From positions 18,900 to 82,899 of IMG/VR virus record IMGVR_UViG_3300033487_000003: a DNA stretch of 64,000 nucleotides; one strand, given 5' to 3'. Position 1 is the stretch's first letter; each line of letters starts with the position of its first letter. The notes below the pieces were generated by a model. The model ran no database searches, was not told the origin of the DNA, and saw nothing but the letters and a program-made list of their open reading frames with translations. Shown piece by piece: positions 59,770 to 60,372 of this stretch. This stretch comes from a virus. Taxonomy: Duplodnaviria; Caudoviricetes. Made by a program: the position numbers and the translations under genes.

Positions 59770-60372
59770 TTATCTGGTTGTGACCGTGACGATAGCGTTC
59801 CTACCGGCGTTCTTTCCCTGATAGAGGGCAGCGTCAGCCAGATCTAGGTACTCGATCATCGATGTGTTGTGGTCCTCCATCGATGTGTTGTGGTCCTCAA
59901 CCAGACACAGACCGATGGTCACTGTCGTCACGATCTTATGTCCATTGATGGATCTTGGTCTTGCAACGGCTACCCGGATCGTCTCGGCGATCTTCTCCGG
60001 ATCGGGGTCGGTAATCAGACCAATGAATTCGTCGCCCATGGTGCGAGCGACGATGACGCCACTAGAGCGGATTGCATCACAGATGTGGCAAATTACGACG
60101 TCTCCGGTTCCGTGGCCGTAGCGGTCGTTGATCTGCTTGAAGCGATCAGAGTCGATGATCATTACTGCGGTGACCTCTTTGGCCACCTCTGCCCAGATGT
60201 GTCTGAGGCCGGTGCGGTTGTAGGCACCGGTGAGCGGGTCGGTGAAGGTCTCGATCCGTAGCCTCTCGATCTCCAGGTCGAGCGCGGCGATATTTTGGTG
60301 TAATGCCGCATTTTCCGCGCATACCGCGCGGAGCTGTTGTTCAAGCTGTTTCACCTGCTCACGAAGATCCAT
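59770..60372 (-). CDS. coiled-coil + GGDEF-domain protein (MGDEF variant)
   Basis: TDPLTGAYNR, IDSDRFKQINDRYGH..GD, ARTMGDEF, VTIG, ADAALY.GK..GRN. Confidence 0.9.
   Translation of the reverse strand: MDLREQVKQLEQQLRAVCAENAALHQNIAALDLEIERLRIETFTDPLTGAYNRTGLRHIWAEVAKEVTAVMIIDSDRFKQINDRYGHGTGDVVICHICDAIRSSGVIVARTMGDEFIGLITDPDPEKIAETIRVAVARPRSINGHKIVTTVTIGLCLVEDHNTSMEDHNTSMIEYLDLADAALYQGKNAGRNAIVTVTTR
59857..59898 (-). repeat. perfect 21-bp tandem duplication in GGDEF gene
   Basis: Encodes EDHNTSM twice. Confidence 0.9.

Follow-up and report, generated by a model that had tools for sequence, protein, structure and literature searches.

A short GGDEF gene at a divergent junction

We analysed a stretch of 64,000 nucleotides (the window; bases 18900-82899) of the IMG/VR virus record IMGVR_UViG_3300033487_000003, which is 82.9 kb long and estimated to be 93% complete, and concentrated on a gene for a 200-amino-acid protein composed of a predicted coiled coil and a GGDEF domain. 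Genes between about 46.4 and 60.4 kb of the window run leftward and those from 60.5 kb on run rightward; the GGDEF gene is the first of the leftward genes. Counted from its first ATG, the full open reading frame (ORF; 59770-60426, minus strand) comprises 218 amino acids. The true start is almost certainly the ATG at 60372, not the in-frame ATG at 60426, because the former is preceded by a Shine-Dalgarno-like GGAGAGG, a database gene call (P0001) likewise gives 200 amino acids, and the homologues begin at an aligned methionine. The N-termini of the homologues share the opening MxLRxQVKxL, and M1 is invariant in the alignment.

The protein scored far above the cut-offs of the Pfam GGDEF model PF00990 (E=1.5e-25; 90.3 bits versus 23.8) and of TIGR00254 (85.2 bits versus 37.4). 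No other Pfam domain was found in the 200 residues, and there is no sensor or input domain. The motifs TDPLTG (residues 44-49), IDSDRFKQINDRYGH (residues 73-87) and ARTMGDEF (residues 109-116) are all present. An AlphaFold2 model built on the family alignment, with a predicted local distance difference test score (pLDDT) of 92.8, consisted of a single helix (residues 3-43) followed by the GGDEF fold. Foldseek matched the model to PleD, WspR, SiaD and DgcB, which have the group III nucleotidyl-cyclase fold, with E about 1e-14 and a probability of 1.0; the top matches were stalk-plus-GGDEF cyclases, namely SiaD (7e6g), WspR (3bre), the GCN4-WspR fusion (3i5c) and the coiled coil plus GGDEF of DgcB (6ttr). 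The profile matched 48 solved cyclases at E<=1e-10.

The sole low-confidence loop of the model (residues 161-170, pLDDT 56), whose length varies among homologues, holds EDHNTSM twice, encoded by a perfect 21-nucleotide repeat. This duplication was absent from every homologue aligned and is unique to this phage; placed by the model in a surface loop, it has the look of recent and harmless slippage. An earlier reading made from the letters alone (the sequence-only reading) had described a GGDEF-like gene with an MGDEF variant, an N-terminal coiled coil, the motifs given above, the lack of a sensor domain and a seven-residue loop duplication, and all of these features were recovered by our analysis.

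The MGDEF/GGDEF polymorphism and the coiled-coil register

Employing a word-indexed search, we identified a family of about 18 proteins of 186-218 amino acids, 44-70% identical and of the same coiled-coil GGDEF architecture, all from metagenome or read-archive assemblies. Several close members lie on contigs of 58-85 kb, near this phage in size. An exhaustive profile search of 1.84 billion cluster representatives gained just five more distant short members, so that the family remains small, at about 20 proteins. No relative above 40% identity was found in one genome per prokaryote species, where the matches were swamped by generic GGDEF proteins, as they were in a metagenome scan; a plasmid collection and cultured phages gave nothing above about 37% identity; and in IMG/VR, queried with the window protein, P0003, P0016, P0010 and the family profile, all GGDEF genes retrieved were distant (<=39% identity). 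Seven PHROG families match the protein. Matches were present in 105 of 50,697 phage records (several evidently bacterial contigs) at identities of <=35%, and no actinobacteriophage was among them; the claim of the sequence-only reading that GGDEF genes are rare in phages holds broadly. The coiled-coil GGDEF family is a putative cyclase gene family new in actinomycete phages, although phage and mobile-element cyclases as such were already known.

The window protein departs from the canonical GG(D/E)EF signature with glycine at the first position. MGDEF was found in five of the 18 aligned members (the window protein, P0002, P0003, P0004 and P0007) and GGDEF in the other 13. Being common to five independent family members, M at motif position 1 is real and not noise. 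An internal start at the methionine of MGDEF and an assembly error were both considered as its source and dismissed, because the five independent sequences carry the residue within full-length ORFs. The five M forms have a mean pairwise identity of 68%, and only 48% of their columns are invariant. The tree requires at least two switches between M and G, because the M-bearing P0007 pairs with the G-bearing P0011 (support 95/96). Of the 120 best database matches, none of the 115 others had M at the first position, nor did any of 234 further intact GGDEF domains from the loci retrieved (226 with G, 6 with S and 2 with A). At residue 50 (60223-60225), which follows DPLTG, all five M forms and P0011 have A or T, and 12 of the 13 G forms have L, V or I. 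Residue 50 and residue 112 (60037-60039) may form a compensating volume swap, with Leu-to-Ala accompanying Met-for-Gly.

Fifteen positions are invariant in all 18 members. Given with their PleD equivalents in parentheses, as assigned by a motif-based mapping, they are D74 (D327), D76 (D329), F78 (F331), K79 (K332), N82 (N335), D83 (D336), G86 (G339), H87 (H340), D91 (D344), R110 (R366), G113 (G369), D114 (E370), E115 (E371), K187 (K442) and R191 (R446); N82 and D91 would be the guanine readers. The last residue of the motif (equivalent to F372 of PleD) is F in 16 members and Y in 2. Because these catalytic and binding residues are invariant in a family whose M forms have diverged so far, only the first motif residue appears to have drifted, toggling between M and G. 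With D91 retained, the protein lacks the Hypr signature (Ser for the guanine-reading Asp) and the enzyme should be guanine-specific; its product is probably cyclic di-GMP (c-di-GMP).

Hunter et al. tried every amino acid at the first residue of the AGDEF motif of Vibrio cholerae VCA0965: activity survived with A, G, H or M and with no other residue, and cellular c-di-GMP rose about three-fold with the MGDEF and HGDEF forms (PMC3974145). The first motif residue of the window protein falls within the experimentally permitted set (G, A, S, H and M), which is permissive and not proof. One related phage (G010, see below) carries HGDEF, so that the two large residues tolerated in VCA0965 are the two seen naturally in this lineage. 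By analogy with VCA0965, we infer that Met at motif position 1 still permits catalysis.

In the AlphaFold2 monomer model, the helix of 41 residues bears an unbroken 3-4 hydrophobic seam (L3, V7, L10, L14, V17, N21, L24, I28, L31, I35 and L38). Counted from DxLT, the hydrophobic positions are -7, -14, -21, -28 and -35 together with -10, -17 and -31, and Asn21 (position -24) is in the core of 17 of the 18 family members. The core Asn of GCN4 favours parallel in-register dimers, and Asn21 may be likened to it. The alternative ('d') positions -4, -11 and -25 are occupied by Glu in 16-18 of the 18 sequences. In DgcR, contacts at -4/-11 correspond to the resting register and those at -3/-10 to the activated one; PadC and WspR conform to it, and WspR fused to GCN4 so as to adopt the active register shows high activity (bioRxiv 10.1101/2020.08.28.271692). 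Because the hydrophobic seam lies at the active positions and Glu at the alternative ones, the phage coiled coil is predicted to be one that can form only the active register.

The RxxD motif of the primary inhibitory site (I-site), five residues before the signature motif, was absent from all 18 members. The window protein has SSGV there, and the family has a 3-residue deletion at this place relative to the outgroups P0020 (RDLD) and P0023. Without RxxD, product inhibition via the primary I-site is not possible. The absence of an input domain, the absence of the I-site and the single register together suggest a protein that is always on, and the gene probably encodes an always-on, feedback-insensitive diguanylate cyclase.

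Operon, related phages and host

Features of the GGDEF locus and of the rest of the window are listed in Table 1. The palindrome upstream of the gene was matched once in the window and never in 100 shuffles; additional GGTAAC/GTTACC hexamers occur at 60501 and close by. The palindrome may serve the divergent early region as an operator. The stem-loop downstream of the gene (fold -27.7 kcal/mol, z -4.5) lacks a U tract and immediately precedes the ribosome-binding site of the kinase-like gene; it may be a terminator, an attenuator, or an insulating or stabilising hairpin for the GGDEF transcript.

Table 1. Features of the window (coordinates of the window; strand as read)
Feature	Coordinates	Strand	Remarks
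Coding sequence of the 200-amino-acid coiled-coil GGDEF protein	59770-60372	minus	including stop codon
N-terminal helix, residues 3-43	60244-60366	minus	predicted parallel dimeric coiled coil; AlphaFold2 and column analysis
GGDEF catalytic domain, residues 45-198	59779-60240	minus	opens with DxLT wide turn D45-P-L-T48
MGDEF in place of GGDEF, residues 112-116	60025-60039	minus	after R110
Perfect 21-nucleotide tandem duplication	59857-59898		in frame; EDHNTSM twice
Shine-Dalgarno-like GGAGAGG	60380-60386	minus	7 nucleotides before ATG 60372; read directly
Divergent intergenic region, presumed promoter region	60373-60495		123 bp; between the GGDEF gene and the rightward gene 60496-60882
Inverted repeat GGTAAC-N15-GTTACC	60398-60424		between presumed promoter and ribosome-binding site; candidate operator
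Stem-loop, 11-bp perfect stem and 4-nucleotide loop	59734-59759	minus	starts 10 nucleotides past the GGDEF stop
AAA_33/polynucleotide-kinase-like P-loop protein	59109-59717	minus	next operon gene; phrog_505, E=5.9e-29
TraB-type FtsK/SpoIIIE DNA translocase, 711 amino acids	53529-55664	minus	NF041214 plasmid_TraB
Large terminase	8928-10646		
Portal	12055-14112		
Major capsid protein	24712-26481		
Tape measure	36086-39694		

The kinase-like ORF overlaps a 232-amino-acid ORF (58657-59355) in another frame, and the true start of the gene downstream is ambiguous. Leftward of it come a DUF4262 gene, small ORFs, a gene for a 470-amino-acid membrane protein and that for the 711-amino-acid TraB-type protein. 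The latter matched NF041214 over its full length (E=1.4e-91), with a score below the equivalog cut-off, and is 27-29% identical to TraB of Streptomyces plasmids. TraB-type transfer operates in vegetative mycelium. All 51 plasmid matches of the protein are from mycelial actinomycetes, which is the best clue to the kind of host. Farther along the leftward run we noted an ArdC N-terminal-like anti-restriction domain (E=1.4e-9) and a ribbon-helix-helix protein (47823-48290 and 48517-49302, both minus strand); these are plasmid-type functions beside the TraB module. None of seven proteins (the GGDEF protein and its neighbours) matched the PADLOC defence and counter-defence models.

To place the operon among related phages, we compared 55 IMG/VR records related by capsid protein. 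Short coiled-coil GGDEF genes occur in four of them (G001, G002, G004 and G010; capsid identity 54-56%). In the window, as in G001 and G004, the gene lies at a divergent junction and is the first of its operon; G002 shares the downstream gene order, but its upstream gene is co-directional. Each of the four has an FtsK/SpoIIIE-like gene for 733-798 amino acids, and the distance between the two genes is 3.5-6 kb in all five GGDEF-bearing phages. In G005 the FtsK/SpoIIIE-like gene is about 1.4 kb from the contig end, and the position of a GGDEF gene would fall off the contig. Neither gene was found in 14 near-complete, more distant relatives or in the complete 94-kb G003. The GGDEF proteins of the four relatives are only about 30% identical to that of the window and group with short GGDEF proteins of Micromonospora and Catellatospora; among these relatives the gene has either evolved rapidly or been exchanged at the same position.

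Several traits of this second subfamily were noted. In G001 (locus L334, 9031-9627, minus strand) and G002 (L335, 9223-9834, plus strand), the guanine-reading Asp is replaced by Asn (GHKTGN and GHKIGN), and KRSRS near the C-terminus has one residue less than the customary K-x-x-G-R-N; these two proteins may have an altered base specificity or activity. The protein of G004 keeps the Asp (GHKVGD). That of G010 (L337, 3495-4241, minus strand) has 248 amino acids, a coiled coil and the HGDEF mentioned above.

The gene annotation of the window is that of a siphovirus-type genome. Among cultured phages its capsid protein is closest to that of Actinoplanes phage phiAsp2 (43% identity), and the remaining matches are all actinobacteriophages; no near-identical phage DNA was found. 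Together with the TraB homology, the capsid match points to a mycelial actinomycete as the inferred host. Three short stand-alone GGDEF proteins of 208-233 amino acids, P0038, P0069 and P0096 (from Micromonospora rosaria, M. endolithica and Catellatospora citrea), are those that group with the second phage subfamily in the tree, and one of them has SGDEY. These Micromonosporaceae proteins may represent a host-side source, or prophage or element copies, and offer a weak hint at the host family. In the whole 82.9-kb record, an EAL phosphodiesterase, a tyrosine or serine integrase and a WhiB-like gene were looked for and none was detected, which fits a non-integrating, possibly plasmid-like lifestyle. 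A six-frame search with regular expressions for c-di-GMP receptor motifs of the BldD type (RGD-x8-RQDD), the RsiG type and PilZ gave no in-gene match.

Proposed role and comparison with known systems

In the mechanism that we propose, a parallel coiled coil of five to six heptads would hold two GGDEF domains together permanently in the active register and, with neither a sensor nor RxxD, output would be set only by the amount of protein. Once expressed from the divergent, presumably early region of the phage, the enzyme would make c-di-GMP from guanosine triphosphate (GTP), and the host pool would rise. If the host is mycelial and forms spores, high c-di-GMP would arm BldD and RsiG and the hyphae would stay vegetative, the state in which phages would replicate best and TraB-type DNA transfer would work.

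Work on Streptomyces makes such an effect on BldD/WhiG-controlled development plausible. Overexpression of the active cyclase CdgB renders S. venezuelae bald and locked in vegetative growth, and this requires both BldD and catalysis; at high c-di-GMP, BldD represses sporulation genes, and its c-di-GMP-contacting residues are conserved throughout the sporulating actinomycetes (PMC4151990). Streptomyces contains phage plaques through development: a mutant locked in vegetative growth gave large plaques that did not shrink, and a hypersporulating bldD mutant gave small plaques with fast regrowth (PMC10117723). Because development contains plaques, an unregulated phage cyclase would be expected to help the phage. 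We tentatively propose that the feedback-free cyclase floods the hyphae with c-di-GMP, disarms developmental containment and keeps open the vegetative hyphal network for TraB/Spd particle-free spread of the genome; cyclase and transfer module would in that case be inherited together as a single unit of host takeover, and MGDEF would be a natural working variant, possibly compensated by Leu-to-Ala after DPLTG.

Several points weigh against the always-on cyclase and its proposed role. Register and dimerisation were read from sequence, and the enzymatic output is predicted. A scan of the divergent region for promoters (sigma-70 consensus) and terminators found nothing. The host is placed among mycelial actinomycetes and no closer, and for the close family members (P0002-P0018) contig size is the only pointer to a phage origin. 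The pairing of GGDEF and TraB genes shows shared inheritance in one related phage group and not an independent association; because the GGDEF carriers are each other's closest kin, they are not independent evidence. The link to TraB-type spreading drawn by the sequence-only reading gains circumstantial support: the gene heads the TraB operon and the pair co-occurs in the nearest relatives, but these form a single kin group. As to the active site, the precedent for M is an engineered variant of a distant proteobacterial enzyme, most first-position substitutions in VCA0965 were inactive, and tolerance depends on the scaffold, Ser being inactive in VCA0965 and active in ECA3270 (PMC3974145). In Streptomyces, CdgB G472A (AGDEF) serves as the standard inactive control (PMC4151990).

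These active-site data also lend some support to a dead or strongly weakened GGDEF protein, which would act as a GTP-binding decoy, a GTP sensor, or a dominant-negative partner of host cyclases or other proteins via its coiled coil or GGDEF surface. The first Gly sits under the bound nucleotide, where bulky residues are expected to clash; M was otherwise unseen among the intact domains inspected; and the conserved GTP- and metal-binding residues fit binding without catalysis equally well. We nevertheless consider this explanation unlikely. Thirteen of the 18 members combine this architecture with a canonical GGDEF, and M and G replace each other even between close relatives; a function needing lost catalysis would not tolerate such reversion. 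Furthermore, M is among the few residues shown to keep activity (PMC3974145), the acids D114/E115 and the phosphate-binding K187/R191 are not relaxed, and the self-complementary a/e seam with its core Asn would favour homodimers. Between the constitutive cyclase and the inactive decoy, both offered by the sequence-only reading, the evidence (canonical family, M/G interchange, invariant residues and register) favours the cyclase, whereas the decoy keeps the support of CdgB G472A.

An active cyclase could also serve another purpose, as a moron-type conversion gene that acts in a carrier or lysogen-like state on the surface or matrix (superinfection exclusion, aggregation) or on secondary metabolism. 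The operator-like palindrome upstream and the strong hairpin downstream resemble a self-contained unit, and cyclases of integrative and conjugative elements (ICEs), islands, plasmids and phages alter biofilm, motility and phage resistance (PMC10672970). Although no integrase turned up, the presence of a replication initiator and of TraB hints at carriage in a plasmid-like state. On the other hand, the hairpin may not terminate for want of a U tract. Moreover, the GGDEF gene leads the TraB operon in the window and in both G001 and G004, and G002 shares the gene order; this arrangement speaks for a tie to the TraB module and not for free-standing cargo. We regard a conversion gene as rather improbable; such a role is compatible with an active enzyme, and the present data do not separate the downstream effects. 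A different nucleotide product (Hypr-like cyclic GMP-AMP, cyclic di-AMP or a linear product), directed for example against host cyclic-nucleotide immunity, is very improbable. Unusual active-site residues sometimes accompany altered chemistry, and two related phages have Asn for the guanine-reading Asp, but both guanine readers are kept across the whole family of the window protein, and neither the protein nor its neighbours matched PADLOC.

In architecture, the predicted cyclase resembles GCN4-WspR (3i5c), DgcR, PadC, Caulobacter DgcB (6ttr) and SiaD (7e6g), in which a parallel coiled coil runs straight into the DxLT of the GGDEF domain. Heptad register sets activity in the known enzymes, and the phage seam is in the register called active in DgcR and GCN4-WspR. 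Natural coiled-coil cyclases differ in that they come with a sensor (Rec, phytochrome) or with an activator (SiaC), and can switch by means of a 'slippery' a-d-e heptad, whereas the phage protein is shorter (200 amino acids), has no input domain and no RxxD, carries Glu at the d positions that would leave one register, and has M at motif position 1. Like VCA0965 (natural AGDEF; engineered MGDEF and HGDEF) and Pectobacterium ECA3270 (SGDEF), it has a non-Gly first residue, and those enzymes are active (PMC3974145). M is natural in five proteins and H in one of the phage lineage, whereas MGDEF of VCA0965 was laboratory-made on a distant scaffold; in the literature searched, only this engineered form turned up as an MGDEF variant. 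The natural MGDEF agrees with the 2014 mutagenesis of VCA0965, a result then hard to rationalise, and its exchange with GGDEF among close relatives amounts to a clean natural experiment on the strictness of the signature motif.

In Streptomyces, CdgA, CdgB and CdgC feed the BldD and RsiG-WhiG switches, and the effect of CdgB overexpression is the one proposed here for the phage enzyme (PMC4151990). They are large proteins with PAS/GAF or membrane inputs, unlike the phage protein, which is <=40% identical to any protein of the species-representative genomes. c-di-GMP in actinomycetes governs the switch from hyphae to spores and antibiotic production; a phage that sets c-di-GMP there would, if the proposal is true, manipulate multicellular development and not biofilm.

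Transmissible elements that bring their own cyclase and alter host behaviour are known: DgcK and DgcL of SXT/R391 ICEs and Dgc137 of a Vibrio genomic island (PMC10672970). GGDEF genes are also annotated in some phages, for example Escherichia phage vB_EcoS-683R6. The known mobile-element cyclases are proteobacterial and mostly have sensor or membrane domains, unlike the phage protein, and a link to a TraB module was seen in none of the 105 phage records with a match. The steady GGDEF-TraB pairing in this phage group thus offers a testable link from signalling to particle-free spread. Compared with these systems, what is new is the actinophage lineage, the natural exchange of MGDEF and GGDEF, the predicted single-register minimal design and the TraB pairing. 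A very small enzyme with an 'on'-only register would be a natural counterpart of the engineered GCN4-GGDEF fusions and might serve as a compact tool to raise c-di-GMP.

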